This document shows, piece by piece, positions 3,219-37,580 of a DNA stretch of 39,254 nt. Below the pieces are notes generated by a model, which saw nothing but the letters and a program-made list of their open reading frames with translations, made no database searches and had not been told where the DNA came from. Origin of the DNA: Chiloscyllium plagiosum (lineage: Eukaryota); assembly GCF_004010195.1 (NCBI RefSeq), contig NW_025214117.1, forward strand, positions 1 to 39,254, given 5' to 3'. The position numbers and the translations under genes were made by a program. The stretch's first letter is position 1; every line of letters begins with the position of its first letter.

Positions 3219-3758
3219 GTAATGACTAAAAAGGTAAATTTTAAACAGTATTCAAAATGAATAGGAATATTCTTGTGTATCTGGCTAAATGCAGTTGGTG
3301 ATGTCTGGTTGTCAAAATGAATTTGTTCCAGTATAAATCCTGTTGAGTGCTAAGCACCAAGTTTGAATTTTAATATTTAGCGGATGGTTAGATTTTGGAA
3401 ATGAGTTTATAGTTTTGTTTCAAAAAATGTTGCTATTTCTAAAGTGGAAGATTTTGAAAATTGTCTTTCTGCACATTCCCATCTGAATCCTATTCATGCC
3501 ATCTATTCCAATGAGCTGGGATACTGTAAAATCACGTAAATACTGATCAATTATTTGCTTTTGACAACACTTTTAAGAACAGTATGTGGAAACAAAAGTT
3601 GAAGACTAGAAAATGGAGTTTGAAGAAGTAATTTGGTATTGATTATTCAAAGGATCCTGATAGTAAGCCTCAAGGGTACAAAACATCCATGTCAGTTTTG
3701 CATGTCAGATTTTCAGTACACTATTCTGAATTGTTATGTTGATCCTAAATTTAGGATT

Positions 3759-4142
3759 AATGTAGGTACTCGAGTAATAGTCAAATTTTTTCGACGACCT
3801 TTTAAGATTATATTCATGCCTGTCAAAATTCATACCATATTGTTAGCAGAAGCCCAACTATCTCTAAACGAATAAAGAAAAATGAACAACGAATTACAGT
3901 AATTCTGAAAACCCGAAGTGGAACACAACAGCCAGCGGGCTAGAAGACTGGGAACATAGCGAAACAACCGGCAGACTGGAAAGCTGGAGTGGGACGTGAC
4001 GACGAGCACACTGATTCATCTGTTATCTATGAAGAACTACGGTCGACTTTTGCATGAGATATGTGGAAAATTCCAGATTATTTGGCCAAAGATAGGGGGT
4101 TGACTTTTACATGAGAGCGACAATACTCGAGTATATACGTTA
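3759..4142. mobile_element. pogo/Tigger-like MITE (~380 bp)
   Basis: Degenerate inverted ends built on TACTCGAGTA (left ..GTAGGTACTCGAGTAATAGTC, right ..ATACTCGAGTATATACG); CpG-rich interior. Confidence 0.65.
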
Positions 4143-4505
4143 ATTCCTAATGGCCTGCTTGCATTATTGCATTTCAACTTGGAGCCCCCAAGTTAAAAAA
4201 TAGAAAATAGACCGAAGCTTGCTTGCATGGCAAACCTCCATAAAATTATCAGCTGGACAAAGGAAAAACAGGCAGGTTAAGGAAGTTGTGGATATCAATA
4301 TACTGAATTCTGTCTTCTGGAGAACAAACAAAAGTCCAGACTGACCAGAGATCTGCATCATGTCTAAATGTTGGAGTGCTCACCTACTTAAATGGGGATA
4401 ATATCTGGAAGAACAGAAATAATTTGGAGGGCAGAGATAAGGAATTAATCATGGATAAAATATTTAAATGGACTGTTTGTGCAACAGATGACATCACATT
4501 AACAA

Positions 4506-5394
4506 TACAACAAGTCCTCATTTAAAGTTGTGTAGGGTTCCTGAAAATGATAACTTTCAGTGAAACATTGTTGCAGTTGGGTTTCGCCAGACCTATTTTA
4601 TCAGAGCAAAACAATTATACCAAGTTTAAATATTTTACATTACTAAATTTCTACATTGGTGAATGAAATAATGTATAAAAAGATGAACAATAAAAATGTA
4701 ACTTGCTACTTATAGTACCTTCTTTTCACCAGTATTCCTGCTTCCTAACCCTTCTGCTCCTTTTCCTCCTGGTTGGTCCAGACCCTTCGTGAGTCATGGC
4801 CTCTGACCTTTTGCTCTGACCACTTCTCCTGGTTTACGTTCCCACTCAAGATCCAGAAGCTGGAGCTGCAGTGTTATCGAAGTGAGAGTCCTGATTGTTC
4901 AGATGTGCTGGGGCTTTTGCAGTATTTTTTCAAATGCTCCCACTTGTGTCTCCTTAACCCTCACCTTGAGCATGGTTTGGGAGAAGGCAGGAGCAGCTTT
5001 GAAAATAATTTGATGATCACATGAATTACAAAAGACCCAACATCTCTCAACCATAGGTGCTTGCTTCCATAATATCAGACCTTCAGTTTTGGATCAAATC
5101 TGGATCATGAATGGGAATGCAGAGATGTAAGTAGAGCATGGGTGAGCTAAGGAGTGAGAATAAGGTTATAACCCATAGGTTGACAAGTGGGGAGAAGCCA
5201 TCACCTGTAGCTTCAAGGTGGAGAAAGGGGACAACTCTGAGGACAAGGAGCAAATGCAGTGTCAATAGTTTCGTGCAGGAATCAATGTTAAAACAAATCT
5301 TGCAATGCTGAACAGGATGATGGGCCCGATTAACTTTCTGACATTAAAGTGAAATTATATTGAACAGGGTAACTTTAAATGAGGTCTTTCTGTA
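4506..5394. mobile_element. Tigger-like non-autonomous DNA transposon (~890 bp)
   Basis: Left end TACAACAAGTCCTCATTTAAAGTT versus reverse complement of right end TACAGAAAGACCTCATTTAAAGTT (21/24 identical), TA at both ends. Confidence 0.75.
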
Positions 5395-7881
5395 TTACAT
5401 TAAGCACCATGCAAAGAATAAAGGAAGTTGATTGAATAGTGATGATTAGGCACCAATTTTTAAAAATTTAACGGTGACACGGAGAATGTGGCAGCTTGAT
5501 ATTGCTTTCTATATTTACTGAATTTGGATCTGTGTGTTCATGTTTGAATGTGATTAATTTTTCTGTGTTTCATTTTTGTACTTCAAGTTGTCCAGTATAT
5601 GCTTGTGAATAAGAATTTTTTATTAACTATCCAGAATGAAGCATCGATGGCCGAGTGGAATTCAGCTCTGACTGGGTCTTGACTTTCATTTTTTGCAATC
5701 AATAGAATTTTGAATTTAGTTGGGATGACTTCCATTTGGTTATACATGTTTGCATATTCACCAAGGAAAACTTCATTATTTACAATAAATTGATATTTGT
5801 TTGTTTATTTTGAAAGGTCCTGTAAAAAAACACTTATACTAAACAAGCTAAAGTGGAATTTCTGGATAGAGAGAATGCATTTGTTTTCCCAGGACTGTTT
5901 GCATGTTATTGTGACCATTACGATCCCTATATCTGCCACATCTGTGTTTTTGCAGCAAAAGTAAAAGTTGGGTAATGTTATTGCCTAATCTGCTAAATTT
6001 CTGACTAATTAAAATATAGTGCTCCTTTTTACCTGAAATCTGTCTGAACATAGATAATTTTTAAAACCTTTCCTCTTCCTGAGAGAAATCAAAAGTTGGT
6101 CATTCAAGGTCACTGACTTTTAAGGTTACGTTTAGTACCACATTAGTATTTTTCCTGTGCCTCCCCTCCCAAGTAAAAGATAGAATATTGAAATTCTAGG
6201 CACCTCATTGGTAGAAATAGTTTGTGTTCTTACCTCAAGATTTGATTGTTGTATTTACAAAACCTTCCAATTCTGCAATTGATTTGTGCTTGACTTGTGA
6301 AGTAAGCCTGTGTTCGGTAAAGTGATCGCATCTAATACAATTTTGGGACAGGATAAGACTAGATCATAGTCTACGTATAGGGATTTTCATTATTCCAATG
6401 GGCAAATATGCAACCAATAATCATAATTAGGTTCACATATGAATTATGCCTCCATATCTAAGTATTGGAGAACAGTTGGCACCTGTGAATCCGCACTTCT
6501 ACATTAGTGCCTTCAGTACATGATGGAAGTAAGCAAGGTGGTACAAGTACTTATAAACCATAAGTTACAGCTTAGTTTTGCTGTAGTTAATGTTGTGAAT
6601 ATTGCCATAATTGTTTCTCTCCCAGTTCCTCCACTGAACAATAGCTGTCAACCTCTTCTCACAGCAGGTCTCACCAAATGTAAACTGAAGTTGACTCTTC
6701 AACTGCAAAGTGCATGGATGCAGTGGCTGTTAACAGATCTAGTGACTTGAACTTGCAATTTTCTGAATCAAAATATGGGAGTATGAAATATTAATGAAAT
6801 AAAAGACACAATACGATAGAGAAATAACTCACATAGCAGTTTTTAAAAAATGATCTGAAGTGCCTAAATGTGGAGGGGAGAAAAACATTTTCAGCGACTG
6901 CCATCATATTTCTAGTTAGTCTTAACGACTGCACACCATTCTGATTTTCTCTCTTATTGCAAGGCATTGCTATGGAGATATTAAGGAATAAAACTTGAAG
7001 GGAAAATACTGTCAATATTAACAACAGATGCTTTTCAGTTACTTTTGGAAAAATCAACTCCTCTCTGCTCACACTCCAGAATTTCTACATTTTGATAGTG
7101 CTATGTCACACCTAACCTCTAATGATTGAAAAGCTTGTGCACTTTTTAGTCTTTTTAAAAATTAAAGATTTGCTCAACAGCGATTCTGATGACTTCTATA
7201 TTTTGTGTTCGTCTCAAATGCTTTTGTATTATTTTAAGCTATATTTGTACGCTTGTATAAATGAAAATCATTTTTATGTTCCATTTTACTTGTCCTGCTT
7301 TAATGAAAAAAAATAGAAAATGAAATAGCAAAGAATGCTTACGACTCTAAATATTGTTTGGTTATAGAAATGCATTTTTGGAAAATCATGGTATGTGCAT
7401 TTAATGGAATTCTTCATAAGAATATTTAGGTTTGTAGTGTAAGCTGACTTAGGTTCCCTCTTTTGAAACAGAAATTAGAATGCAGTAGCAGCTACAGTAT
7501 CCCTGGCTTTAGGAATGAAAAGCCACCCTGATTATTAACTGTTGACCTGAAAGTGCCCATATGTTAAGATGTCAGTTGAGTGGTGAGGCTTAGCTATAAT
7601 AACGTCTGAAGGCACGTAAACTCTTAAGCACTGATTGACTCCGACTATAAGTGAAGTATGAGAAGGCAGTACATTGTTTACCTAGTTAAGGCCTTAAAAA
7701 GAGGCTAAAAAGAATCTAAACTTGAGATTTAATGCAATGAGCAATTGTTTTCACTCTTTTTCATTGAGAAAAATATTTATTTATGTTATAAGAAATTACT
7801 GGATTAGCATTTACAATAATTTTGACTAGTTGGTTTATTTTTGCCAAATTACACAGCTTTGAATCATATAAATCCAATATG

Positions 7882-10800
7882 GAGTCATAGAGATGTACAG
7901 CATGGAAACAGACCCTTCGGTCCAACCCATCCATGCTGACCAGATATCCCAACCCAATCTAGTCCCACCTACCAGCACCTGACCCATATCCCTCCAAACC
8001 CTTCCTATTCACATACCCATCCAAATGCCTCTTAAATATTGCAATTAAACCAGCCTCCACCACTTCCTCTCGCAGCTCATTCCATACACGTACCACCCTT
8101 TGTGTGAAAAAGTTGCCCCTTAGGTCTCTTTTATATCTATCCCCTGTCACCCTAAACCTATGCCCTGTAGTTCTGGACTCCCCGCCCCAGGGAAAAGACT
8201 TTGCCTATTTACCCTATCCATGCCCCTCATAATTTTGTAAACCTCCATAAGGTCACCCCTCAGCCTCTGCTCCAAGGAAAACAGCCCCCGCCTGTTCAGC
8301 CTCTCCTTTTCGCTCAAATCCTCCAACCCTGGCAGCATCCTTGTAAATCTTTTCTGAACCCTTTCAAGTTTCACAACATCTTTCTGATAGGAAGGAGACC
8401 AGAATTGCACGCAATATTCCAACAATATGTCCTGTACAGCGCAACATGCCCTTCCAACTCATGCACTCAATACTCTGGCCAATAAAGGAAAGCATACCAA
8501 ACGCCGCCTTCACTATCCTATCTACCTGCGACTCCACTTTCAAGGAGCTATGAATCTGCGACTCCAAGGTCTGTTTGTACTGTAACGCTCCCTAGGACCT
8601 TGCCATTAAGTGTATAAGTCCTGCTAAGATTTGCTTTTCCAAAATGCACCACCTTGCATTTATCTGAATTAAATTCCATTTGCCACTTCTCGGCCCATCT
8701 GGTCAAGATCTTGTTGTAATCTGAAGTAACCCTCTCCGCTGTCCACTACACTTCCAATTTTGGTGTCATCTGCAAACTTAGTAACTGTACCTCTTATGCT
8801 CACATCCAAATCATTTATGTAAATTACAAAAAGTTGTGGACCCAGCACCGATCCTTGTGGCACTCCACTGGTCACAGGCCTCCAGTCTGAAAAACAACCC
8901 TCCACCACCACCCTCTGTCTTCTACCTTTGAGCCAGTTCTGTATTCAACTGGCTAGCTTTCCCTGTATTCCGTGAGATCTAACTTTGCTAATCAGTCTTC
9001 CATAGGGAGCCTTGTCGAACACCTTACTGAAGTCCATATAGATCACATCTGCAGCTCTGCCCTCATCAATCCTCTTTGTTACTTCCTCAAAAAACTCAAG
9101 TTTGTGAGACATGAAACCATGTTGACTATCCCTAATCAGTCCTTGCCTTTCCAAATACATATACATCCTGTCCCTCAGGATTCCCTCCAACAACTTGCCC
9201 ACCACCGACATCAGGCTCACTGGTCTATAGTTCCCTGGCTTGTCCTTAACACCCTTCTTAAAGAATGACACCACATTAGCCAACCTCCAGTCTTCCGGCA
9301 CCTCACCTGTGACTATCAATGATACAAATATCTCAGCAAGAGGCCCAGCAATCACTTCTCTAGCTTCCCAAAGAGTTCGAGGGTATACCTGATCAGCTCC
9401 TGAGGATTTATCCACCTTTGTGTTTCAAGACATCCTGCACTTCCTCCTCTGTAATTTGGACATTTTGCAAAGTGTCATTATCTATTTTCCTACAGACTAT
9501 ATCTTCCATATCCTTTTCCACAGAAAATACTGATGCAAAATACTTGTTTAGTATCTCCCCCATTTTCTGCGGCTCCACACAAAGGCCGCCTTGCTGATCT
9601 TTGAGGCACCCTATTTTCTCCCTGGTTACCCTTTTGTTCTTAACGTATTTGTAAAAACCCTTTGGATTCTCCTTAATTCTATTTGCCAAAGCTATCTCAT
9701 GTCCCCGTTTTGCCCTCCTGATTTCTCTCTCAAGTATACTCCTACTGCCTTTATATTCTTCTAAGGATTCACTCGATCTATCCTGTCTGTACTTTACATA
9801 TGCTTCTTCTTTTAACCAAATCCTCCATTTCTTTAGTCATCCAGCATTCCCTATACCTACCAGCCTTTCCTTTCACCCTAACAGAAATATACTTTCTCTG
9901 GATTCTCGTTATCTCATTTCTGAAGGCTTCCCATTTTCCAGCCGTACCTTTACCTGTGAACATCTGCCCCCAATCAGCTTTCGAACGTTCTTGCCTAATA
10001 CGTCAAAATTGGCCTTTCTCTAATTTAGAACTTCAACTTTTAGATCTGGTCTATCCTTTTCCATCACTATTTTAAAACGAATAGAATTATGGTCGCTGGC
10101 CCCAAAGTGCTCCCCCACTGACACCTCAGTCACCTGCCCTGCCTTATTTCCCAAGAGTAGGTCAAGTTTTGCACCTTCTCTAGTAGGTACATCCACATAC
10201 TGAATCAGAAAATTTTCTTGTACAAGCTTAACAAATTCCTCTCCATCTAAACCCTTAACACTATGGTAGTCTCAATCTATATTTGGAAAGTTAAAATCCC
10301 CTACCATAACCACCCTATTATTCTTACAGATAGCTGAGATCTCCTCACAAATTTGTTTCTCAATTTTCCTCTGACTATTAGGAGATCTATAATACAATCC
10401 CAGTAAGGTGATCATCCTTTCTTATTTTTCAGTTCCACCCAAATAACTTCCCTGGATGTATTTCCAGGAATATCCCCCCTCAGCACAGCTGTAATGCTAT
10501 CCCTTATCGAAAACACCACTCCCCCTCCTCTCTTGCTTCCCATTCTATCCTTCGTGAAGCATTTGTGTTCTGGAACATTAAGCTGCCAGTCCTGCCCATC
10601 CCTGAGCTATTTTTCTGTAATTGCTATGATATCCCAGTCCAATGTTCCTAACCATGCCCTGAGTTCATCTGCCTTCCCTGTTAGGCCCCTTGCATTGAAA
10701 TAAATGCAGTTTAATTTATTAGTCCTACCTTGTCCCTGCCTGCCCTGACGGCTGTTTGACTCACTTCTGGTCTCAACTGTACCAGTCTCGGATTGACCTC

Positions 10801-11486
10801 TTTCCTCACTATCTCCCTGGGTCCCACCCACCCACCACCTTACTAGTTTAAATCCTCCCAAGCAGCTCCAGCAAATTTCCCTCCTATTATATTCGTCCCC
10901 TTTCAATTTAGGTGCAATCTGTCCTCCTTGTACAGGTCATTTCTACCCCAAAAGAGATTGCAATCATCCAAAAATGTGAATCCTTCTCCCATACACCAGC
11001 TCCTCAGCCATGCATTCATCTCCTCTATCCTCCAATTCCTGCTCTCACTAGCTTGTAGCACCAGGAGTAATCCAGGTATTACTACTCTTGAGCACCTTTT
11101 TAAGTTCCTACCTAACTCTCTGTAATCTCCCTTCAGACTCTCTACCTTTTCCCTTTTTATGTCATTGGTTCCAATGTGGACAATGACCTCTTGCTGGCCC
11201 CTCTCCCCCGTGAGAACATTCTGCACCCTCTCAGAGACATCCTTGATCCTGGCACCAGGAAGCAACACGCCATTCTGCTTTTTCGCTGCTGGCCACAGAA
11301 ACATTTGTCTATACCCCAGACTAGAGAATCCCCTAACACAATTGATCTCTTGGAATCCGACATACCCCTTGTTGCATTAGAGCCAGTCTCGATACCAGAA
11401 ACTTGGCTATTCGTGCTACGCTCCCCTGAGACTCCATTCCCCCACCCCCACCCCCACATTTTCCAAAACAGCATATTTGTTTGAAA
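7882..11486 (-). mobile_element. CR1-clade LINE, ~3.6 kb, partial ORF1 (SGNH/GDSL esterase type) plus disrupted ORF2 (APE endonuclease + RT)
   Basis: ORF1 motifs VLGDSL, PGARIKDV, VHIGTNDI; ORF2 motifs CIYFNARGL..DIIAITE, NYRPVSL, DFSKVFDK, GVPQGSVLGP, KFADDTK, FFTQRVVRVWN; 3' UTR ending CTCTATGACTC. Multiple frameshifts and stops. Confidence 0.96.
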
Positions 11487-11840
11487 TATCTTCAGTTAAC
11501 TTGCATGCTGAGAGGTTGCTTGCCAGCCATGCTGTTGCTCTCGAATAAAGGTAAGATGATGGCATGCAGCATGTTAATTAGCAAACAGACCATTTTTTGG
11601 ATTGTTTTGCAATGTTTTTTTAAATCAGTTGGCAAAGAGCAGTGCTGTTGATGTGAACTTCTGCTAAATAGCAATAGACTGGATGGTGGATTCCTGATCT
11701 TTCATGGGGGAATTGAAGTCTGGTAGTAATAATGTCTCCAAGTAGAGAATATCCGATTGGAGGACAAACCTAAATATATCTAGTCTTTTGCTCCATACTG
11801 TACTTTCTCATGGCAATTTAGCACAGCTTAAGTTTAACTT

Positions 11841-14678: not shown

Positions 14679-15299
14679 TCTTGCTGTCTTGCCGCTGGGC
14701 ATTGGTGAGGCCACACCTAGAATAGTGTGTGCAATTTTGCTCTCCTCTGAGAAAGAAGACTCTTGCAAAAGAGAGTGCAGCAAGAAGTTTACCAAATTGA
14801 TTCCTGGGTGGCCAGGTTAATGTATGTTGAGAGATTGAGTCAGTTTGGATTGTATTCACTGGAGTTTAGAAGAACAAGGAGGGTATCTCCTTGAAACCTT
14901 TAAGATTTTAACAGGAAAAGGCAGGTTAGATGCAAGAAGGATGTTCTGATGGTGGGGGAGACCAGAACCAGAATTAATAGTTTAAGAATAAGCCAACTGA
15001 GATGAAAAATTTCTTCACCTAGAAAGTGATCAGCTTGTGGAATTCACGCTCACAGAATGTGCTTGAGACCAAAACGTGTTTTCAAGAAGGAGATAGATAC
15101 AGCTCTTGTGGCTAAAGACATCAAGGGATATGAAGGGAGGAGAGGCTTTGACAATTGAGCTTGATGCTCACCTATGATTATAATGAATGATGAAGCAGGC
15201 TCAAGAGGCAGTTGGCCTACTCCTGCTCCTATCTTCTATGTTTCTATATAAATATTTTGCCATTAAAGTTGATTAAATGTTACCACCCACCCTCCCATA

Positions 15300-16790
15300 A
15301 CTATGAAAAATAGTCACCTTTTTGATCATGTCTAGATTCTATAGGTCTGAGTCCATGGCTTCCTGTTACTTAGAGTTGAAGTTCTCCAATCACAGTTTTT
15401 CATCTTCGTGGAAGTCCATCTACCATGATCATACAAACCTTCAATTTTTTTCCACCAGTTCCTAACTACCAGACTTTTCGATTTGAATTAATATACTCTT
15501 AGTTCCATATTTAATTCAGTTTCTTCAGGCAAAAGAACCACCGTGGGTGCTATCTACACTATTCTTTTTATTGCTTATGTGGAAATCATCTAGTTTTTGT
15601 TACTTTTCCTGTTCTTGCTCTGATCTCTGGTATTTCATTGAAATTCTTGGAGAATTTCTTTACTATTTCCTATTTCCACCTTTGTATTTTTTTGGCCCAT
15701 TTACTTGTCCCATTTCCTATCTGGACTTGTCTCTACTTATTATTGATTTCCATTAATATATTTTGTTGTATTATCAATAATTTTCAGACATCATACTCGA
15801 GAGTGAAGTAAAAAACATTCTTCGACTCTTGCCTGCCTTAGACCACATCTGAGACCTAGCACAAGTTTGTGCAAGACCTATCTCCTCTCACAATGGATCA
15901 AAATCTATATGACCCTTTTGTCATATCTATTGGGACGTGAAAGGTATTAAAATTGTTAAAACAGCTTTGGTTTAAAAAATTGGTTTTGCTGGATTTCAAA
16001 ACGAATTCCACAAATCACATGATTTACAAGTTGGCCAAAAGTTCTGAAAGCTTCTGACAGTATGTAGAAGGGGAATATAGCCAGATTGATTACTCTTATG
16101 GGATTTTTCATCTATTGTTTGACTATCACACAAAACATCTTAACAAAGAGGGTTCAGACTCCCAGCTTCCAAGTCCAATTCAATAATACAAGGGGCATCT
16201 TGAATCTCATTGTGCTTGCAGTAGTGCTGAAAGAAGCTATCCATCTCCTAAGATATATTATGTCGATTTTCCCAAGGAGGTGGAAACTCCTTTGTTAATG
16301 TGAAAAGTTTAGTAATGGCTATCCATTATCTGGCTGTGTCTGGCATTGTGATTTAAACACCTCTGAAATTTGAGAGATTTGATCAATATTTCTGAACTTT
16401 TGAGTTGTTTTGCTGTGAAACTCCTTTATAGAGGACTGCACCAGATCTAGACTCTGAACTAAGCTGAAGGGTATAACTCCCTCAAATACCTGTTTACCAA
16501 AGGGATCTTGATGCACCTAGAAAACCAATGATCTCCTATCTACTAACCTTGTCAGGAACTCCCATCTCATTTTTGTGGCCTTATCACCAACTGTGAAAAA
16601 ATTCTTTGACCGCACACTGCAGCCATCCAGACTCTGATCTTAAAGTTAACTGATAACTGCTACTATTTTTTTTTTCGGTTTCAATAATCACAGATGTGAA
16701 ACTCTGCTCCTGAACATACACTATATCTTTCTTGAGTACATGTGTGACGCCACATAAAACAGGATTGAATATGTGGAATAAATCATCCTG
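15300..16790 (-). pseudogene. Possible decayed coding sequence of unknown origin
   Basis: Non-repeat, purine-rich minus strand with protein-like open stretches broken by stops (e.g. 68 open codons QDDLFHIFNPVLCGVTHVLKKDIVYVQEQ...WLQCAVKEFFHSW; EMDSFFQHYCKHNEIQDAPCIIELDLEAGSL). No family recognised. Confidence 0.3.
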
Positions 16791-16865
16791 TCACTTTAAA
16801 AATTGACTTCAAACAATTAGGGTCTTGGGAAATATGCCTCAGTCTTTTCAAAATTAAATCAATCT

Positions 16866-17075
16866 GTGGATGGAATGAGCTGCCAGAGGAAGTGATGGAG
16901 GCTGGTACAATTGCAATATTAAAGAGGCATTTGGATGGGTAGATGAATAGGAAGGGTTTGGAGGGATATGGGTCAGGTGCTGGCAGGTGGGACTCGATTG
17001 GGTTGGGATATCTGGTCAGCTTGGACAGATTGGACCGAAGGGTCTGTTTCCATGCTGTATAGCTCTATGACTCTA
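16866..17075 (+). mobile_element. CR1 LINE 3' end fragment
   Basis: Near-identical to the 3' end of the 7882-11486 element (TGGAATGAGCTG...GAAGGGTCTGTTTCCATGCTG..CTCTATGACTCTA). Confidence 0.9.
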
Positions 17076-17671
17076 AATAAATGATGGATGAGGGAGTTAG
17101 TAGAGAAGATAGTGACAGTGGGTAATTAGGAAATGAGCCAGAGGCTGGTATAAAACAGAATGACATGGCAGAGCTACACCACATTTCACACCCCACTACT
17201 CATTAAGCTACCAAGAAGCTTGATGAAGTTAAATTTTTTGGGGAGAGTTCAAATTTAGAACAATATAAAACCTCAAAAAAAGGTAGACATTCCATATGAA
17301 AATGCATCGTTAATAAAATAACATTGATACAGAAGATTGTGGAGCGCATTTAAAATTCATGCAAAACTAGTCAGAATAAAAACAAAAGACAAAAAAAATC
17401 CAAATATCAAAACATACACATAAAAAAAGTTGACCACAAATGATTTATAGCACCTTAACACAGTTAATGTTTGTTATAATTCTGCATTTCTACACTCCTA
17501 CAAGTACAAAGTCTCTGCTAAAAATCAGTATTTTGTTATTTTTGAAGATCAATAAATTTTAATGAGAATGTTGAACGTGATTGGATGTTTAGGCTTGTTG
17601 GAAACAAAGATGCAAATTTTGTTCAGTGACCATTTTTCCAATGAATGAATCGCTATAGGACAGAAGGTTCA

Positions 17672-17884
17672 TCATTGTGGCCACAAATCAATGAGGCAGC
17701 AATTGCTTTGGTGAAAAATAGGTGGCCAAGGAGCAAACTATGCAAAAGACTTGCTCTTTGAACAATGGTACTTTAAAGGGAAAATGGCATACAAAAGCAA
17801 ACAAAGTCTTCCAGTGAATACTTTCCTTCTTAAGCATCCAATTGCCAATACAATTACTACCTCATTAATTTGTGGCCTCAATAA
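17672..17884 (-). other. Long imperfect inverted repeat / rod-like RNA hairpin
   Basis: 17672-17711 pairs ungapped with 17845-17884: 33/40 Watson-Crick, 5 C-A on plus (G-U on minus), 2 true mismatches. Inner helices 17726-17741/17818-17833 and 17743-17752/17804-17813 also gain G-U pairs on the minus strand. Confidence 0.8.
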
Positions 17885-18602
17885 ACCCTTAGGCATTAAG
17901 CAAACTTTTAATCAACTTCCTTTACATTCACCCATCATTAGTTTGGCATAATAACTGAGAAATGTTATTTCAAGTTGCTTTCTGATTTTTTAGAATGATG
18001 TGCATTGACTAAATAGAAAATACCAGCGAGCTAGTCTGAAACCATCATTCATTCAAGTCATTTTACTGTGTTTTTTAAACAAATGGCCAATTGCACTGAA
18101 ACTTCCATTCCCATCTCATTGTAGGGTGTTTGGAGCAGAGCTAATTAAAAATTTTTTGGGCAAAAGGAGGATTTAAGAAACTATATGCACAATTGTTGTT
18201 GGGCCGTTATACCAAAATGTAATAAATTACACTTCAGGACCACACCTTCATTACTTGTATGGCAAAACCTGTTTATAACCATGAAAACTACTTGACACTT
18301 AGATGCAAATAGTTTGTGTAGAGATATGAAAGGAGTAGTAAGCATGTTATCTGCAATACAACATGCCCTCTAATTTCAACACAAAATGAGTCACAAATCC
18401 TTTAAGCCTTTTTGACAGGTTCTTAATACAGATCTTGAAGGAATATCTAACTTCAGACCTCCCTTACAAGGACACTGGTCACTCATTCATACTTGCTGTG
18501 CAGCCTGGTTGGAGTTTTCTCCATGTTATAATTTTCACTGCACTGAATTTCAATTGCTTGAGTAAGCTTAATTTTATTTACAACAATTGTGCGTCACCTT
18601 AC

Positions 18603-18713
18603 ATCACTCTTTCCAATACATCAGTACTCATTCCAATGTAATAATCCTCTGTGAATGTTAAGTCACTTCCGTATGTTGATCTGGTATAATTAGGATCATA
18701 ATGGATTCTATTT
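18603..18713 (-). other. Candidate 111-nt internal exon
   Basis: Minus strand TTTACTTTCTTTCTTGTTTAG acceptor and GAT|GTAAGG donor; length divisible by 3; one frame fully open (NRIHYDPNYTRSTYGSDLTFTEDYYIGMSTDVLERV). Protein not recognised. Confidence 0.45.
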
Positions 18714-21700
18714 CTAAACAAGAAAGAAAGTAAATTGACCCCAACATCAAATACGCATCAATACTTTTGAAATCCCTGGGGTGGAACAGGAGATAATTAC
18801 CATGTTTTTGCTACCAAAATAAAGATTTCCAAAGAATAAGAAAATACCCACCTGCATTCTATCACTTCACTAGGTTGGTTTTTGGAAGTCAGTTTAATTA
18901 CCACCTATTTTAGCTGCTGCCCCATTTAGAATAATGAATTTTATATAAAACTTTTGAAAGCTTACTGGAAAATGCTAGTTGTAACATTTTAATAAATTTG
19001 ACCGGAAAGCTGGTCATACCTAGCAAATTAATGGAGTTATGTAAAAGTAATAATGTTGGTATTTTACAAACCAATGCAAAACTCAAAATAAGGACTTTAA
19101 ATGGACTTAAAATCTGTTAAATCAAAAATATTTTTAAAATCTATTTTAGTTAAACTTTTAAATTTTTAGAAAAACAGTGAGGTCCAAGCAATAATTCTGA
19201 TGAGCAGTTTGAAGCTTGCACTCAGTGAATGCTGAGAAGCTCATGTCTAGTCAACAGTTAGCTTGTCTGAACAATGCAACATTTTATTATGCTAACTAAA
19301 TTGGATTCAAACAAATTTATTGCATCCTCCTTTCACCTCCCCCCCAGAATTATATACTTCAGATATATTTTATGCAGCTTTAATAAAAATCTTATCACTA
19401 TTTCTGATCACTGCCTTGTCCACTGCCTGAAGGACAGTTGACAAGGGTTCAATGCCGCTGTGAAAACTGTAGTGACACTTCATATTATTTGATTACATAC
19501 TGTCAGGCCACAACAAGCACAACATAAAATGCAAGTAGCACATTTCAGTTGTCTTGTTACATTTGTACTCATCGTTTTTAAAGTCATCATAGATTCTGAC
19601 TTAATTACAAGTTATCAAAATCAAAGTATGGAATCATATCATGTATTAATCACAATGTTTTCAGAACTTAAAAAGGTCACAGATCACATACATTTTCAAT
19701 CTTATTTTGATCTACAAAGTCAGTGTCGCAGTCACAGTACCAGTTGTCCAAGTAATAATTAAACAAAGGACCCTATTATCAGATACAAATACATATATAG
19801 TGTAGTCCGAAATAAAATAGTCATAAATCTCAAAAGGAAAGTACATTTAATCCAACATACAACCCGAATGCATAGCTAAATAATGGCGCCTCTATCATTG
19901 TTTTTCCCTATATTAGCATTGTTTTTAAAGTTACAATACAAGACATTCACAAGGCTCACAGATTTTTGAAACATTTTAAATCAACACATTCAAGCCTGGG
20001 AAAAAAAAATCATATTTTACCTACACAAACATAATCAGAAGCAAAAGCCGAAACAGATCTGAAACCGCAGATCTTCCCAGTCATGCAGGTATGAAAAACA
20101 ACTGTTCTATGATGGACTCTCAGGAACCAACTGTTTGTAGTCTATCACACAGGCTGACTAAGTCACTAACGCCTCTGGCCCAGTGGACACCTCACTCCTG
20201 TTTGAAAAGTGGTGGCAGCTGAAGGAAGAGATATTGATGGCTCACTAGTGGTTGAACAGCTGAGAAACCATTGCTGTCTTCTTCTATTACACCTACATCA
20301 GCAAAGTCACAGCTTGTAAAAGCCCACATGGTGAGGCCTTTCAGGCGAACTGCTCACTCAAAGTATGTGGCAACATTTTCCTCTGTTCTTTAAATTATCC
20401 ACAATGAAAAGTTCTCAAATGAGAGTGTCAGGTAAAGAAAAAAATCCAAACTCCAGCACTCAGTACTGTATCTAGAAATAAGACTTTCCAATGAAGTAAA
20501 TGACAAAAGCAACAAGCTTTTGCAACAGTGGAATGATTTTAGTTATATGACATACACATGAGTATATGATGTTGTAACTGATGGGCTTTAAGCCATAGCG
20601 TCAAGAAACACAGGTGTGGGGTAACTTCTTGGATTAAAGAAAACGCAGTCAAAATAATGGTGTTTATTCACCACCTAATATATTTCCAAGGTCTCATGAT
20701 TTACTACTGTATCTAAATGATACTCCCCATGTCCACATAAGGGGAAAGGTTTTTTGAAAAACAAAACATTACAGCAAGACAGTCATATTTCTAGTTTTAA
20801 TTATGTACAAAAAACATTTAAATGAATTAAGTTTGATCAATATACTGAATTAATAGTTTTATGTCACAATAGGTCTAATTGAAAACTACTGAGTGGATTA
20901 ACAGGATTATCAAATGCACTACTCTGCTGCTGGATCTTTTTAAGATTAACAATGAAAATTCCTAAAGCTCCTTGAGCTGTTCAAGGGTGTGTATGACATC
21001 AGTGGTTTATCGAGTAGAAAGATAATCAATGAGCATTATTAAAGCCTCGTCAGCAAGATCTTAAATAAAAGCACGAATTAGATTGCTCTCTGTGACAGCA
21101 GGAATCATGACCTACCCTATAATAATTAGGTTGATGACCGGCCATCGAAAGGATGAATCTGATCAATCTCACACGCTAGGGACTTACACATCCAAACTAA
21201 AACTCCAGGGAAAAAAAAACTAAATACTTCACATTTCTGACTTGCAGATTAGTATGTTACAAAAATAAGACAACACAAAAGAGAAAAAAAACCTATCACA
21301 AAAAACTCAAAAAAAGGCAAAGAGCAAGAACCTATTTACTGTGAATAACTGCAAACAAAGGCAAAACCAAATCAATTCTTGCATTCCATGAGTGAATATT
21401 TGTGCACTAATGATAGTTAAAATGTACATACATTAAAAAGAATGTTATGATTTTGCTATAGAAGTTAGAAGGAGGAAATCATCTCCCACAGCTCCAGTAT
21501 GCAATTCTATTTTTTTGAACCACAGATTGTGGGGGTGGCATGGAAGGGAGGGAAGATGGAGGAAGGAATAAACAAACCTGAGCAAATGGAAATCCAGAGA
21601 GTGAAATGTATTAGCCAGGGCTCTACCCAGGAGTTCAGTAAATGACATTCACTACAAGTGCATTATCAAAAAGCATGCTGTGCAGATCCACCCTTACAAA

Positions 21701-22585
21701 ACCTGCTCATTTGGAGGTCTTTCATGAGAAATGCTGTTATTTGCCACTGTGAGGACTCCCACCAACACAGCTGCAACATTCCCCAGTTGAGCAGGTGGGA
21801 ATCCATCTACCAATACAAATGGACACCAGGAGGTTTTGAAGCCCACCCAGCTTTTCAGAGAAATGCTTCCACCACCTCCCCCAGAACTTAACAGGATGGT
21901 GATATTTTTGGCACAAACCCAGGCTGATGAGGAGAGCTATTTATTGGACCAGGAATCACCTACAAAAAGAATTTTTTCTTTTTTTTTAAAAAGTGATCAA
22001 CCAAAAAAGGTTTACTTTGTCATTTTGCTTTCTAAAAAAAAAATTGCCCCTTCTGGTCAATCCAGTCCAATCCTCTTCCTTATCCTTGTAACCTACGATT
22101 CATAGTTAATGCTCAACCTTAAAAACTGCAAAATCCACAAGTCCCTCCACAAAGTTTGCAATCTCATTGTCTAATTAATATTTGAGCTGCTTTCCCATCT
22201 TCAGTCAACCAAACAAAAGGGAGATTTTATTTTCTCTCTGGTCACAGAGTAGCTCAAAGTATTGTCAAATGCAGTCTCCAAAGTTAGTTGTCAATTAAAG
22301 CTTTGCAGCCTAATCCTCTCAGACACAGCACTTTGGAATCTATAATAACAAATAGCATGATCACAGGTTTGCCAAACAGACTTAGAATCAGGTGGTTCAG
22401 TAATGAATAATAAAAACAGGACTTGCATTTTAAAATAAAGAACAAAGTCAAATTGTATTGCCGATTTAAAAACAGCTTTAACTGGAAACAATCAAATAAT
22501 CCAGAATCAAAACTACTTTCAAAGTTAGGAAGATTTAACCAGTAAAAAAAAACAACACTGGAGAGTTAAATTCCATTGGTGCCTA

Positions 22586-22975
22586 AACTGAGGGGTGGCC
22601 TTATAGAGGTTCACAAAATTAGGAGAGGCATGGATAGGATAAATAGACAAAGTCTTTTCCCTGGGGTCAGGGAGTCCAGAGCTAGAGGGCATAGGTTTAG
22701 GGCGAGAGGGGAAAGATATAAAACAGACCCAAAGGGCAACTTTTTCACATTGAGGGTGATACGTGTATGGAATGAGCTGCCAGAGGATGTGGTGGAGGCT
22801 GGTACAATTGCAACATTTAAGAGGCATTTGGATGGGTATATGAATAGGAAGGATTTGGAGGGATACGGGCTGGGTGCTGGCAGGTGGGACTGGATTGGGT
22901 TGGGATATCTGGTCGGCATGGACGAGTTGGACCGAAGGGTCTGTTTCCATGCTGTACATCTCTATGACTCTATGA
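22586..22975 (+). mobile_element. CR1 LINE 3' fragment
   Basis: LRGGLIEVHKIRRGMDRINRQSLFPG...RGHRFR...FFTLRVIRVWNELP plus 3' UTR ending CTCTATGACTCTATGA; same subfamily as 7882-11486. Confidence 0.93.
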
Positions 22976-24485: not shown

Positions 24486-24894
24486 GCTAATACAGAGATT
24501 GAGATGTGGCCTTAGCCAAATAAATAACCTTAACTATTTGCCTACACTAATCTATTTAACAAAATAAAAGGCAGCTAAAGTACACTATTCAGCTGCAACA
24601 CACGAGGGGAGGGGGATTCCAAAACTGTCACAACCTCAAAAGATCAGACAGTCAAGCTAAATGGAAATAATGTGGTCATTTCTGAAAACTGGCCATACAC
24701 TTTTAAAGAGATGCAAGGCAGCTCAAGCATAAGGTGGAAATTATGAGAACTCTCAAGTTGGAAATGCTGGTGAATATGTGTAGCGTAATTGAATGGTGTT
24801 TGGAGTGGAGGTGTCGGGGGGAGAAAAGAGATGGAGAACTGATACTGATCAATGTTGATAGGTTTTAATATGTTGTACTGCTCAATATGCTCAA

Positions 24895-25085
24895 GAATGT
24901 CAGCAGGTCTGGCAACATCTGTGGAGAGAAATCAGAGTTGACGTTTCAGGTGCAGTTTTGAAAAAGGGTCACTGGACCCAAAACATTAACTTTGATTTTT
25001 CTCCACAGATGCTACCAGACCTGCTGAGATTTTTCAGCTATTTCTTTTCGTTACAGACTTCCAGCACCTGCAGATTTTTTGTTTA
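24895..25085. mobile_element. Palindromic Penelope-type/hammerhead-associated repeat
   Basis: Inverted arms 24901-24950 and 24977-25026 (CAGCAGGTCTGG..CATCTGTGGAGA / TCTCCACAGATG..CCAGACCTGCTG); centre GGGTC-ACTG-GACCC stem with a decayed hammerhead core. Confidence 0.65.
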
Positions 25086-25408: not shown

Positions 25409-25614
25409 TCTTGGAGATGCCAGTGTTGGACTGGGGTGGAAAAAGTTAAAAATCTCAACACCAGCTTATAGTCCAACCCATTTATTTGGAAGTACTAGCT
25501 TTCAGAGCACTGCTCCTGCATCTCCTCAACCACCTGATGAAGGAGCGGCGCTCCGAAAGCTAGCCCTTCCAAATAAACCTGTTGGACTATAACCTGGTGT
25601 TGTGTGATTAACTT
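25409..25614 (+). mobile_element. Palindromic Penelope-type element with a minimal hammerhead core and 13-bp target-site duplication
   Basis: TSD TTTCCACAACATA at 25396-25408 and 25615-25627; ~80-bp inverted arms; CTGATGA (25534-40)-A-GGAGC-GGC-GCTCC-GAAA (25555-58)-GC-TA. Confidence 0.8.
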
Positions 25615-26242
25615 TTTCCACAACATAATTCTTCAAAAAGTACTTAGAAATTGTCATTAAGCCCCTAACCAAACACATAGCTCCCAATGTGATAATCACA
25701 CCCAGGTAACTGAGACAATAAATGTGTTCATTTGAAATGTGAGCCAGAGCATGGAAATTATTCTAATGTTAACCTTAATGTGAAAAATTGGTGAAAAAGC
25801 ACACAATTCTTTTTTGTTTCTGTTACAAGTAACAGAAGTACTCAAAAATCCCTGTTATGTGAAGATACTGTACATACATTCTGAAACTATCCTACAATGA
25901 ACTGCAGAGGCAAATGGTATTATAAGCAAAACTTTGAAGATTTGGAATAACCCAGAAAAGAGGTAACACAAGGATCCCCAGACAGGAGACAGGACCCCAT
26001 TAAATACCATGCTATGAATATAAATTGTGCCCATGTCACTTTTGAACAAAACATGGTTAAAAACCCTGCAAACTAAGCTGTGATTCAGTTGAAGACTAAA
26101 ATGGACTAATGATTGTTATCTGCACTAGTGGATGGCAGTGTAAGAAAATATGAAAAATGCTAAGCAGAGGACACAGCAGATTCAAATAAGCTTAGCTGAC
26201 CCTGCTCCATGGCATACAGGAAAGCTGCATCAATGACAATAA

Positions 26243-27284: not shown

Positions 27285-28260
27285 TTTATAAAACCTTTAA
27301 AAATAATGCAATATCACAAGACACTTCACAGAAGCATTACAAAACAAAAACTGAGCAACAAGGATTTCATCAGACAACCAAAAACTTGGTCAAAGGAATA
27401 GATAAAATGTGGAAAGTTAGATTGAGATGTTCAGACATGAATTTCAAAACTAATGTCCGAGGCATTGAAATGATGGAGTGATTAAAAAAAAAGTCAGGAA
27501 CACACAGATCTCAGACTGTTATTAGGAGATGGATGGAGTCAGTACCTAGGATTTGGAATTGGAATGGGAACTTTAAATGATGAGGTCTTCAAACAAAAAA
27601 GGTCAGCATTGTTGACCGCAAGATTTTCCAAACGGTTCAATTAGACTTTGAAATTTCAAATAAAATTTTGAAAATAATACAGATATATCCAGTTCAAATG
27701 GAGGAAACTTCTGCTCATCTAGTATTGAATGTCTGATGAGCAGTCTGGTAACTTAGCATCAGTGGAGACATTGAGAAGCTGTAATGGGTCACCATGTGGT
27801 CATTTACCCTATGCTTTAGGATGTTCCCAAGGGAGCCCATGGTGATGAGAAACTAAAAAGTGGCAATGAAAAAAAAGAGACCCCTGAGAACACCAGAGTT
27901 TATGTTCCACAGGGATTCTGTGGTTATGATTAAACTGAAAAGAATGGAACCAGATGAGAAAATGTCTCATTCAGCTGGATGACTGTGAAGAAAGGTTGCA
28001 GGAGGATTTTAGTTGGCTCTCTCAAACGATCCAGAGAGGCAATCTTTAACACAGTCAAATAGAATGCCATTTGTAACTTCAATAAGAGTCATTTTGAAAC
28101 TGTGACAGGGAGAAAACCCGACTGATAAGATTCAGTACAGAGTTCTGGGAAAGATGGCCAGCAACATGGTCAAAAGACTTGGGAGGGGAAGAGAGATTGG
28201 TGATTGAGTATTGGTTTGCAAGATCACTGAAGTTGATTCATCTTTTTGGAGAAGGGATCC
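27285..28260 (-). mobile_element. Ancient L2-like LINE fragments
   Basis: ACCAAAAACTTGGTCAAAG and downstream purine-rich blocks resemble the reverse complement of L2 3' ends; decayed GVxQGS motif at ~27878-27895. Confidence 0.5.
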
Positions 28261-29714
28261 TGGCTACACTTCCGATTTGCAAGTTGAAGTTCAACGCCTA
28301 AAGCTATACAAATCCTGAGTGTAAAAATAATTCCTATTTTCACCACAGGTGGCGTGATGGAAGATTATCTGGCACAGCTGGGCTAGAAAGAACCTAACCA
28401 TGCTGTGCATTATGAAGGGAAGCCGAGGCCTTCAACAGCTTTCCCAACAAGATGTAAACCATATGAAAACACAGGGGAGGCCAGAAAAAGGGACAGCATT
28501 AAAGACTGAAATAGAACTATGATCTGTGGAGTGCAACATCATAAATGAAAAGTTATTTGGCTCTGATCTTGCTAAATGAAATCAAAATGAATTTCACATT
28601 AAAAAACGTTCCACTGCATTCCCCTCACCCCCTCCCAGTATTGAAGGCAGGTTTAGGTAATTACTAATGAAGTGTCTAAATAGTAGCTCACAATCCTAAA
28701 AGTAGACAAGACAGTCTGATTTACAGTACAATACTGTACTGAATTCTGTATTCCCAAATAGTGCATGTTACATTACTTTCAAAAAAGACACATCATTGCT
28801 TTTAAAAAAAAACAGACTATGTTACACATTGAGACAACACAAGTTTATGAATTTTTTTTCAAGCATAAGTAGAGCTTTGCAGATATCACAGAATGTCATT
28901 TATGGTTTTATCATAAGCCAAGTGAATAAGCACAATCCAAAATAAAATAAAGCTGAAATGGCAAGTTCCAATCAGAACCCAATGTTCCAACACTATTTCA
29001 TTATGATCGCAAAATTAAAAAAAAAAAGACAAAGGCTCGAAAATACACAGATGCATTCAGCAAAGGGACCAATTTTAAACTGCGTAAGTGAATAAAGTTT
29101 TGAGAGAATAAATTCTCACCCAACATGTCAGTTGAGGATGTTGTTTTTATTTTTAAGTCAAACTGTCCTCTTCTCAGCTGACACAAGAACATGGTCTGTC
29201 AGCCAGATCTTCAAAATCTTGCTTTCCTTCTTAAAAGGATTTCTCCCCACCCCCACAATGATGGAAACCCATGTGGTAAAATTTAATAGACACAATGGCA
29301 GCAGTAACAGGAAGAACTAACTGTGGACTGAAGTTTGAAATTCAGCACTAAAATACAACATATCAAAAAATTAAAGACAGACTTTTCAGGATTAGTGATT
29401 AAAAGATATTCTGAAGGTTTAACAAAAATTTTAACTGATTTCAAAAACAATGTAAATGAATTGAAACTCAATAGAATTTGTGCCTTATAACTCTGTAACC
29501 CATTCTCAACTACCTGTTATCCTCAATGCAAATTCAAGACAATTTCTGTCATTAAAGATGCAGCCACAATATTTCCTCAACAATCCCAGTGTTATCCATT
29601 GAAATTGACAAAGCTTAAGAAAAATTTTTCACCACACTAGCAGCTTAAACAAAAATCTATCCAAGGTTAGTCCCATACTTTGCTTTGAATGGAGGATGAT
29701 TGTCAAAGACTAAG

Positions 29715-29900
29715 AATTTGCATTTACACAGGTAGAAAATCACAAAGCATTCTACAATCAATGAATTATACAGTCAACATGGTCAGCCAATTTTAAAGAG
29801 TAAGATCCCATAAACAGAAACTTAAATAATACATGCTTTGGTCAGGTTAGCAAAGGAGAAATATTGGTCAACACACCCAGAAAAGCCTCTCCTCTTCAAG
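29715..29900 (-). mobile_element. Decayed DeuSINE/L2-type 3' tail fragment
   Basis: TTGCATTTA..., CAGCCAATTT, AAGATCCCATAAACAG, AAATATTGGTCA motifs in the order expected for the reverse-complemented SINE tail. Confidence 0.4.
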
Positions 29901-30473
29901 CAGATTGATTGAACAGGCAGGCAGGGCTTGAATCAATTTCTAACCCAATAGACACACTGCACTGACATGTCAATTTGGGTTGTTTCCTCAAGTCTTGAAT
30001 AAGGATCAAGTCCACAATATTCAAAACAGTACAGGAAGAAAGGCAGGGATCTAAGTTTCTGTGCCAAAATAATCCAATAAACATACTGATTTAGGTTGGA
30101 GTATAGAGATAATGAAATGTCACATGCTCCATTTAAAAAAAACGGAAGCATCAGAACTTATTGGATGAAAAGAGGTTAATGGAAATCACATTGTTGTGCT
30201 TAATTCATTATATCTCATGTTCAGGCAGCAAATTAGCAATTGTTATCTTAAGTAGCAAGTGTGTCAAATTAATTAATGCTGCATCACTGTCTCAACCAAT
30301 GGTGGTCAGCCAAAGTAACTGCTTTGAGCCACTAAACAAATTAAAATCAACACTCACTGCTGAGAAAGCATTCTTTGCAATGGTTCAATTTTTGTAAGAT
30401 TGCTTCATTGGCCAGTTACTCTCTCAATTAGCAGCAGTCTCATCACAGAATCAGAAAATTGTGGTCTCAAGTC

Positions 30474-31459
30474 AGAGTCATTCAGCATGGAAACAGACCC
30501 TCTCCCCCCCCCCTTCACTGTTTTGATCACACAGCATTGCCCTTCGATGTGAAGGGCACTGCTTGTCACTGGCCACCCGGGTGTTTTCCTATCTTCCTGG
30601 TGGTGGAAATTGAATAAAAGATTCTGCACTTTGTGTCTTTCACTTTCACTGTGTCTCACACCGTTTCACTGCGTGCTGGGGAAAAAATAAGCACTACTGC
30701 ACTTAGGTGGTAGTGTGGGGGTTAAATTTTTAAAAAAACAAAAAAAAGAAGAAAAAAAAAGAAAAAAATGGAAACAGACCCTTCAGTCCAACTCATCTAT
30801 GTTAACCAGACATCCCAATCTGTCCTAGTCCCATTTGACAGCATTCGGACCATACCCCTCTAAACCTTTCCTAATCATGCTTTTTAAGTGCTGTAATTTT
30901 TCTGCCTTTCTCTGGCAGCTCATTCTGTTCATCCACCATCCTCTATGAAAAAGTTACTCCTCAGGCACAATGTCAAAAGTCGAAAGAACCTGTACTATTC
31001 AGCCTCTCCCTATAACTCAAACCCTCCAGTCCTGAAAACATTCTTGTAAATCTTTGCTGCAGCCTCTAATGTTTATTGACATCTTTCCTGTAGAAGAACA
31101 ACCAGAATTGTACATAGTATTCTAAAAGCAGTTTCATCAATGTCCAACTGCAACATGGCATACGCAATGTTATGACTGACAAACGAAAGCATGCTAAATG
31201 TCTTTTTCACCACCCTGTATACCTGTGACTCCAATTTCAAGGAACGTGCGCGTGCATCCCTCGGTTCCTTTGTTCAATGCCACTCCCCAAGGCCCTACCA
31301 TTAATTGCTCAAGTCCTGCCCTGGTTTGCCTTTCCAAATGCAACATCCCACATTTATCAGAATTAAACTCCATCTGTCACTCTTTGGCCCAACTAATCAA
31401 AATTCCATTGTACTTGAAAATAATTTTCTTCACTGTCCACTACACCACCTATTTTGGTG
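30474..31459 (-). mobile_element. CR1 LINE 3' fragment, itself interrupted at 30502-30767
   Basis: AGAGTCA..CAGCATGGAAACAGACCCTTC 3' end, and sequence collinear (with a deletion) with 7882-8765. Confidence 0.85.
30502..30767 (+). mobile_element. Poly(A)-tailed retrotransposon 3' end (L1/Tx1-like insertion signature)
   Basis: 15-bp TSD ATGGAAACAGACCCT (30487-30501 / 30768-30782), A-rich tail 30732-30767, AATAAA at 30613-18. Confidence 0.8.
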
Positions 31460-31845
31460 CCTACTGCAGAGACATGAGCATGTAATTTAGGCTGCCACTA
31501 CAAAATAGTTCCAAGAGCTGCTGCACTCTTGGATGTGCCAGAATTCAGATGAGAGGTTAAATCATGGCCATGTCCAATGTTGGTGCAACAGATACCATAA
31601 TGTTATTTTAAAGATAAACAGGGGAGTTATAGAAGTATCCTGGCCAAAATGTATCCAATCGACATTAAAACAGGTTATCTATTCATTGTGCTCTACACAA
31701 AAGGAATACTGCATGTCCAACATTATAACAGTGATTACATTTTGATAGTACTTCATTTACTTGCATTGTCTGGAGACACTTTGGATGTATCAAGGTGACG
31801 AGAGGGACTAAAGATGTTTCTTCTTTCTAACTAGACTGATTCTTT

Positions 31846-37527: not shown

Positions 37528-37580
37528 TTTTCTGCCAGAGCCGCAGCACTGCGCGGAGTAGCACACAGCAGGCTAATGGT
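37528..37580 (-). other. Candidate non-coding first exon of the minus-strand unit
   Basis: GC-rich 50 nt directly next to the CRE at 37582, ending in AAA|GTAGGC donor at 37527-37522. Confidence 0.35.

Follow-up and report, generated by a model that had tools for sequence, protein, structure and literature searches.

The fold-back at 17672-17884 raised the question of whether it is the decaying remnant of a DNA duplication or an RNA structure kept by selection. The original prediction described a rod-like hairpin with G-U pairing specific to the minus strand, and the one-sided wobble was taken as a sign of selection on a minus-strand RNA stem. We analysed the element within its window, which is the whole stretch of 39,254 nucleotides from Chiloscyllium plagiosum. 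The locus was not described in the literature found by a search that left out most subscription journals.

Stem geometry and folding

The pairing of the two arms was recounted. The gapless 40-bp stem, 17672-17711 with 17884-17845, contained 33 Watson-Crick pairs, five C-A pairs on the plus strand, which are G-U on the minus strand, and two T-T positions. This gave 38/40 paired positions on the minus strand, as predicted. The right arm (17845-17884) is the 5' arm of the minus stem. The left arm (17672-17711) is its 3' arm and carries all five wobble Gs. The two interior pairings also exist as described, one with 13/16 paired positions and one with 10/10 including 3 G-U. The shuffled-control folding proposed with the original prediction supported the stem on both strands. 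The minimum free energy (MFE) was -81.6 kcal/mol for the minus strand (z -7.47) and -64.1 kcal/mol for the plus strand (z -5.11), and 0/200 shuffles were as good on either strand. The element was the sole folding outlier in the 5.5-kb block 17085-22560, with a residual of -7.3 sd among 530 folds (the best of 488 control folds reached -2.5).

The rod-like shape was not confirmed. The interior (17712-17844, 133 nt) was branched in the MFE structure, and forcing both described helices cost 5.6 kcal/mol (-76.0). The interior alone on the minus strand folded no better than shuffles, with z -0.70 and 68/300 shuffles as good, and 64% of its bases were paired in the MFE structure. An A-A mismatch on the minus strand at 17878/17678 closes a 33-bp core helix, and 6 or more weaker pairs continue below it. 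On the other side, a multi-branch junction was predicted directly after 17845/17711 in the minus MFE structure. A gapped DNA alignment extended a weak likeness of the arms inward, 17664-17760 with 17798-17890, and the inner part was matched by 1.2% of 1905 control pairs. Pairing of the outer flanks beyond the stem was at chance level (49% of 1890 controls). The original prediction had seen no target duplication, and none was found at the ends among the lengths tested, which were of at least 4 bases. Two short-loop fold-backs of the window, 25436-25621 and 24884-25042, served as controls; the former has a relative at 38491-38595.

In the case of the wobble, the one-sidedness itself stood, with 5/5 mismatches of the same kind. 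Its weight as a sign of selection was modest, as the two-sided p was 0.06 and the window leans the same way. The other inverted repeats of the window showed this mismatch type 123 times versus 97 (56%, p 0.09). A G-U pair on the minus strand and an A-C pair on the plus strand are the same letters and are not distinguishable by sequence.

Copy number and changes between genomes

Four of 24 public runs were mapped to 17085-19450 at 80% likeness, and copy number was judged from these reads only. No second copy was present at 80% likeness in the genomic sets X15 and X7, where depth was flat and single. This spoke against a MITE. Short partial matches elsewhere were picked up in the same sets, yet no second record lay over the hairpin. 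A metagenome scan with the arm motif gave 1 locus (L001:368-391), where 24 bases match by chance within a microbial reading frame; it is unrelated to the element. Viral contigs and phages gave 0 matches each.

Organism B, a related species (X15), was represented by a single contig that spans the region and differs by 73 substitutions over 2355 bases. Among the 40 of 89 differences that were listed, only 17695 and 17710 (both G>A) fell in the element; the 49 remaining differences apparently lie further right. Both changes were in the left arm, and both gave G-U on the minus strand. The right arm and the interior had no listed difference. This arm-biased change was observed directly. The putative guide arm was without a listed change and the changes in the passenger-like arm kept pairing in 2/2 cases, which is a small number. 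Constraint on the element was weak: 2 listed changes were found versus 5.3-6.6 expected from the flank rate (p 0.04-0.10), and a gap of 214 invariant bases arose in 11% of simulations. When all 9 events were considered, 7/7 transitions were of the G-U type, a result reached in 0.2-0.6% of simulations. The stem of organism B lost 5 kcal/mol on the minus strand and 11.6 on the plus strand. On the plus strand its two new adenosines again formed A-C, the triplets being AAG and UAG. The comparison revealed no compensatory double change.

Deletions were observed in X7, which is another individual of organism A. One contig was without about 12 bases within 17717-17795, as judged from bin depth and gap count. 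One X7 contig skipped 197 bases (17694-17890), with a 5-base microhomology of 17694-17698 and 17891-17895 at the skip. These deletions may be an allele or a library artefact.

As a separate observation, the hairpin may act as a hot spot for deletions, or it may trip library polymerases.

Transcription and gene setting

The placement of the element downstream of VPS39 was correct. The last coding exon of VPS39 lies at about 1815-1898 on the plus strand (Pfam zf-Vps39_C). In the same Pfam search, 16 of 17 frames gave nothing credible. On the minus strand, an inferred terminal exon of an apparently non-coding host transcript spans 17085-21959, with an acceptor at 21960-21961 identified by eye and a donor near 37198. 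A CpG/CCAAT-rich promoter was noted at about 37550-37950 (within 37000-37950), with two TGACGTCA words and the minus-strand donor at 37198. The promoter, the donor at 37198 and the acceptor at 21960 would outline a minus gene that converges with VPS39, appears non-coding and looks unannotated. No convincing Pfam hit for the host gene was found in 85 minus and 107 plus frames of at least 42 aa with LINE stretches excluded, a search that can miss short exons.

Base skew can be read as transcription direction. It was minus-sense in 5/5 kb-bins of 17001-22000 and in 10/10 bins of 28001-38000, and plus-sense in 5/5 bins of 2001-7000. This pattern points to a minus-strand transcript running from 37 kb to 17 kb. 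We infer that the element is close to the 3' ends of convergent transcripts and probably belongs to the final exon of a non-coding minus transcript. Contigs of X5, a run taken by guess to be RNA (286 M letters), covered 17276-19450 except for a hole at 17819-17856; they filled 28/30 bins, and the two leftmost were not among them. In X21, a single-cell run of which about 2 in 100 was read, 18 reads were placed and 16 were noise below 90% likeness. None of the 18 fell on the hairpin. The two good reads, at about 17175-17400, pointed to plus-strand RNA 270-500 bases upstream.

The claim of a minus-strand RNA stem under selection was therefore upheld in part. The two G-U changes of organism B, the lack of extra copies and the skew were in its favour. 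The 0/18 reads on the hairpin, the interior that is no rod and the missing compensatory double change were against it.

An exon-like stretch was noted at 15788-15852 on the plus strand, with a good acceptor and a short protein-like tail plus stop but without a Pfam match. The two plus reads at 17175-17400 could be explained if this stretch is an alternative last exon on the plus strand.

Similarity of the minus 5' arm to let-7 and miR-98

The minus-strand segment 17864-17846 matched miR-98, a let-7-family microRNA, at 19 of the first 20 bases, with one central base missing. The reference, a miR-98 of bony vertebrates, was the sequence printed in Table 1 of PMC8745176. The segment corresponds to nt 1-11 and 13-20 of miR-98 and belongs to a let-7/miR-98-like 22-mer at 17843-17864 on the minus strand. 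The let-7 seed (nt 2-8) lies at 17863-17857, at the 5' end of the stem arm, and the let-7-like 5' end sits 13 nt above the A-A mismatch. If the stem were cut with a 2-nt 3' overhang, the passenger-like strand would be 17690-17711 on the minus strand. The alignment score was 17; the best of 5000 shuffled elements reached 13 and the best of 60 shuffled windows 15. The next-best miR-98 tile in the whole window scored 12, and the left arm scored 9. Against let-7a, the form that most catshark rows carry, the score was only 13, which was reached in 1/5000 shuffles, or about 4% after allowing for about 190 microRNAs by our own estimate.

The surroundings of this match were not those of a let-7 gene. 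No Rfam let-7 match was obtained for 17640-17920 (281 bases) even at E 10. The 3 matches in this segment were led by a plant long-hairpin model at 27.5 bits versus a cut-off of 211. At gathering score there were 0 matches in the window, and 15000-22500 gave 2 chance lncRNA matches. None of the shark let-7 precursor loop motifs was present in the element, and its lower stem, loop and passenger 3' end did not resemble those of let-7. There was no second let-7-like copy in 39 kb and no clustering with let-7 or mir-100/mir-125 genes within the window. Some let-7 genes stand alone. Both arms were without the same central base, which is explained by one duplication and not by descent. Because of this shared gap and the missing precursor homology, we did not class the element as a let-7 gene. 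Its appearance is that of a let-7-like or let-7-complementary word that was duplicated in inverted orientation.

Shark let-7 sequences were compared in PMC12553114. In its Table S1, 0/32 rows carrying the miR-98 form (of 33 with that start) were from cartilaginous fish. The table has 192 catshark rows, and the first 30 of them include 11 let-7 rows, each with a G at nt 11. In 8/11 of the catshark let-7 passenger strands seen there, a G stood opposite U6, as judged by eye, and the element shares this feature. The let-7-like motif was not found in 6 supplement files of that paper.

Partial likenesses to miR-1, miR-137, miR-458 and miR-724 were also seen by eye, as one would expect when about 150 microRNAs are compared. 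A miR-181 8mer site on the minus strand (17930-17923), just outside the stem, overlaps a miR-1/206-like stretch in 17914-17930; it was found by eye and is at chance level.

Geometry of a putative microRNA precursor

The putative precursor would be 175 nt long with a 131-nt inter-arm region. The geometry was partly that of a canonical substrate, with a 33-bp core (versus about 35 bp) and the 5' end at 13 nt, but at least 6 weaker pairs lie below. The 33-bp core, the position of the 5' end above the mismatch, the seed and nt 1-11 and 13-20 are shared with let-7 precursors (Let-7-P2b3 and miR-98 in the MirGeneDB rows of PMC12553114 Table S1 and in PMC8745176 Table 1). Unlike these precursors, the shark element is one central base short, has no loop, lower-stem or passenger homology and has no bulged first base. 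It is also unclustered, and its inter-arm region of 131 nt compares with 23-55 nt in the catshark let-7 rows. The value of 55 nt, in the catshark let-7 Let-7-P2b3, is the vertebrate maximum given in PMC12553114. The authors of MirGeneDB 3.0 regard the vertebrate precursor-length limit as an open question (bioRxiv 2024.09.27.615356). Basal UG, apical UGUG and CNNC at its position were all absent under the Microprocessor motif criteria of bioRxiv 2024.05.09.593372, a source which also describes many microRNAs without these helper motifs.

Giant invertebrate hairpins such as Drosophila mir-989 and Daphnia let-7 (PMC12553114) share with the element more than 100 nt between the arms, a branched interior and an unpaired stretch at the dicing site. 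According to the same paper, human cells process long hairpins poorly, and a long precursor requires an interior that is paired and a bulge close to where it is diced. In the element, an unpaired stretch next to the would-be dicing site was present in the prediction. However, its inter-arm region was not extensively paired, unlike that of the giant hairpins. The latter have well-paired interiors and are orthologous to conserved genes, whereas the element has a vertebrate host and an origin that looks de novo. MicroRNA loops usually change fastest. The interior of the element was invariant in organism B among the differences listed.

UA steps, G-U wobbles and ADAR

The right arm contains 14 adenosines on the plus strand. 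Five of them have a 5' U, and exactly those five face C: 17850, 17856, 17859, 17867 and 17883. The p value of this placement was 0.0005, or 0.0013 with the control-repeat odds ratio of 1.37 and 0.0034 without assuming which arm had changed. The pattern was noticed after the fact among up to 8 contexts, hence p may be up to 0.03. The left arm was without any TA, which is true of 5% of local 40-mers. The two fold-back stubs of the window kept most UA steps paired (10/11 and 3/5). In the minus stem, no normally paired UA is left, because the U of every UA faces G or its A is lost.

ADAR prefers a 5' U (PMC4373398). With engineered guide RNAs, a G-U wobble on the 5' side strongly reduces the editing of UAN triplets, and adenosines facing C are more prone to it (PMC11994451). 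The minus strand of the element carries the suppressing arrangement at every UA, and on the plus strand every UA adenosine faces C. The effect was shown in human cells with reporters and guides. On this comparison the wobbles should block ADAR on the minus stem, and the same A-C mismatches should invite it on the plus strand. The suggestion of an ADAR substrate therefore fitted the plus strand; it did not fit the minus strand, where the wobbles sit where editing is suppressed. The wobbled and unwobbled minus stems were equal in energy (-81.6 versus -81.2). Reading the five plus-strand As as G moved the plus fold from -64.1 to -91.0. The X5 contigs showed no A-to-G change and had an unedited A at three of the five sites, with the hole at 17819-17856; no raw RNA read lay on the element.

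Opposite editing is thus predicted for the two strands from the same letters. PMC11994451 raises G-U control of ADAR as a layer of regulation that has received little recognition. A natural stem in which every UA step carries a wobble would, even without processing, allow the genomic use of G-U against ADAR to be tested cleanly.

MicroRNA sites on the plus strand

Four 8mer sites were found on the plus strand of the element, for let-7, miR-7, miR-204 and miR-153, and one on the minus strand, for miR-724. Sites were counted by eye against about 95 seeds (PMC4211694 Table S10), and about 0.4 per strand were expected by hand estimate. Four on one strand gave p of about 0.001 on this by-eye count and hand estimate. 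The let-7 site (17857-17864) had six further Watson-Crick pairs to the 3' part of the microRNA (p 0.017 for let-7a). It was buried, with an opening cost of 16 kcal/mol for 17844-17864, and it pairs through nt 9-11. In the case of miR-7, the site (17806-17813) was accessible at 1.7 kcal/mol and looped after nt 9, and it had six 3' pairs at 17791-17796 (p 0.074). The miR-204 site (17775-17782) and the open miR-153 site (17738-17745) were identified by eye. An AATAAA at the foot of the stem (17880-17885, plus strand) may be a poly(A) signal; it is one of 68 in the window and hence weak.

Triggers of target-directed microRNA degradation (TDMD) such as Cyrano (PMC10899785, PMC7798263) share with the element 8mers with extra 3' pairing for miR-7 and let-7, and also a miR-153 site. 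Such a trigger is expected to combine an 8mer with at least six 3' pairs, a number that the let-7a and miR-7 sites both reach, and to be accessible with an unpaired centre at nt 9-10. The element has only six 3' Watson-Crick pairs, and its let-7 site is paired at the centre and buried. The validated triggers described in PMC10899785 are unlike a site that pairs through nt 9-10.

Cyrano (OIP5-AS1) itself was tried as a candidate and rejected. Its motif series, as given in PMC7798263, was absent near 17806 on the plus strand, there was no miR-7 site in the minus terminal region, and the conserved motifs were absent from the element or out of order.

Proposed function of the minus-strand stem

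The element is a real single-copy stem with two unexpected signatures, and a function is plausible on predicted RNA. We put at about 0.4 the probability that it is a selected, editing-shielded minus-strand stem working like a let-7 guide/passenger duplex. This value, like every likelihood expressed below, is a judgement and not a computed posterior. In this model, an old single-copy local inverted duplication would have become an RNA stem near the 3' end of the putative minus, apparently non-coding transcript. The 5' arm, which is let-7-like, would be held in sequence, and the passenger-like 3' arm would be held only in pairing. Each of the five G-U pairs would replace U-A at a UA step, so that the editable UA is gone from the 3' arm. 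The same G-U would put a suppressing 5' wobble before the A on the let-7-like arm without a cost in stability. With G-U at every UA step, the stem would be shielded from ADAR.

The likeliest use of such a stem would be as a Microprocessor/Dicer-type substrate, probably an inefficient one, giving a let-7-seed small RNA across the 131-nt inter-arm region. True processing into this small RNA is unlikely, and the remaining confidence goes to a shielded stem with a structural role. A more specific version is a de novo shark-specific microRNA hairpin with a 175-nt precursor, which would have arisen when a let-7 target site was duplicated in inverted orientation, would lack the let-7 loop motifs read by LIN28 and would be ADAR-shielded by G-U at every UA. 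Its opposite strand would be an editable, let-7-binding mirror image. The chances of this version appear small. If the stem were processed, it would break the observed length limit on vertebrate microRNA precursors, since 131 nt is more than twice the longest curated case, and it would illustrate how a microRNA mimic can arise from a target site in a vertebrate.

The minus-strand shielded stem accounts for the same-arm wobbles, the UA placement, the arm-biased change, the skew and the X5 coverage. It leaves three plus-strand 8mer sites to chance. The missing let-7 precursor homology, the long inter-arm region, the absent helper motifs, the weak constraint, the invariant interior in organism B, the X7 deletions and the plus-pointing X21 reads are against it.

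Alternative explanations

If neither processing nor shielding holds, the element is an ordinary duplication scar. It would then come from a one-off template-switch inverted duplication of 40-100 bases that is decaying, with a G-U bias from chance and transcription-linked mutation asymmetry, and the microRNA likenesses would be coincidental. We consider this doubtful, although several results are as expected of a scar. The arm identity of 82% resembles that of the other fold-backs in the window (79% and 82%), the 56% lean of mismatches is window-wide, the conservation signal is weak, the interior is unstructured, and the X7 deletions lie at microhomology, as expected of a slippage-prone DNA hairpin. 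The scar has to leave the miR-98 match, the four 8mers on one strand, the UA placement and the 7/7 G-U transitions all to chance. Somewhat more doubtful again is a working RNA on the plus strand, in which the miR-153, miR-204, miR-7 and let-7 sites would be clustered ahead of the AATAAA, at a distal 3' end on the VPS39 side. The left arm would serve as an editing-complementary sequence: it would mask the let-7 site and direct ADAR to the five C-facing UA adenosines, three of which lie inside that site, and editing would tighten the stem and switch the site off. The count of four 8mers versus one, the six 3' pairs of both let-7a and miR-7, the favoured ADAR setting of A-C with a 5' U, the shift in folding energy when the five As are read as G, and the two plus-strand X21 reads upstream all agree with such an RNA. 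All sites lie within the block without a listed change in organism B, the two new As of organism B again form A-C, and an X5 contig starts at 17857, one base past one of the five As, which is weak evidence. Against the plus strand are the 16 kcal/mol needed to open the let-7 site, the pairing through nt 9-10 that sets it apart from the validated triggers of PMC10899785, and the skew and X5 coverage, which favour the minus transcript. In addition, no plus read of X21 lay on the element, the X5 contig kept an unedited A at three sites, and the 12-base X7 deletion fell within a bin that holds two of the microRNA sites.

The other explanations were much less probable. Membership in a dispersed repeat family, either a MITE or a Penelope-like fold-back stub, is very unlikely. 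The element resembles the stubs of the window in its size of about 200 bases, its fold-back shape and its arm identity near 80%, and one of these two fold-backs (25436-25621) has at 25534 what we take to be a minimal hammerhead-type core. By the same pattern there was no such core in the element, which also differs in its long interior. It did not resemble any of six repeat pieces from the window (null fractions 0.27-0.92), and it had no target duplication of at least 4 bases and no second record at 80% in X15 or X7, a threshold that leaves copies below 80% out of reach. Slightly less credible is that the Gs are fossil edits, left when ADAR acted once on each UA step of a fold-back RNA that later returned to DNA as a copy. 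The single change per UA step at all five, with none at the other As of the stem, would agree with this, as would the 5' U preference of ADAR. However, no unedited parent copy was present in the two genomic read sets, all five changes are on one arm (1 in 16 by chance), the inner arms are far more diverged, and there is neither a poly(A) tail nor a target duplication. The least probable explanation is an orthodox let-7/miR-98 gene or pseudogene with a loop expanded by insertion. The likeness of the mature arm favours it, and the longest known vertebrate loop is also that of a shark let-7, Let-7-P2b3 (PMC12553114). The lower stems, loops and passenger 3' ends, the central base missing from both arms and the lack of a second let-7-like copy in 39 kb all argue against it.

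Other features of the window

A 36-codon ATG frame with a cysteine cluster was noted at 19483-19611 on the minus strand. It had a weak Pfam match to Hepcidin (E 0.0005, 20.8 bits versus a cut-off of 27) as 1/192 frames, and the match is probably due to chance. About 3.6 kb of LINE sequence occupies 7880-11500 in reverse orientation, immediately behind the 3' region of VPS39, and copies at 16866-17078 and 22588-22973 pair with its end (90-92%).
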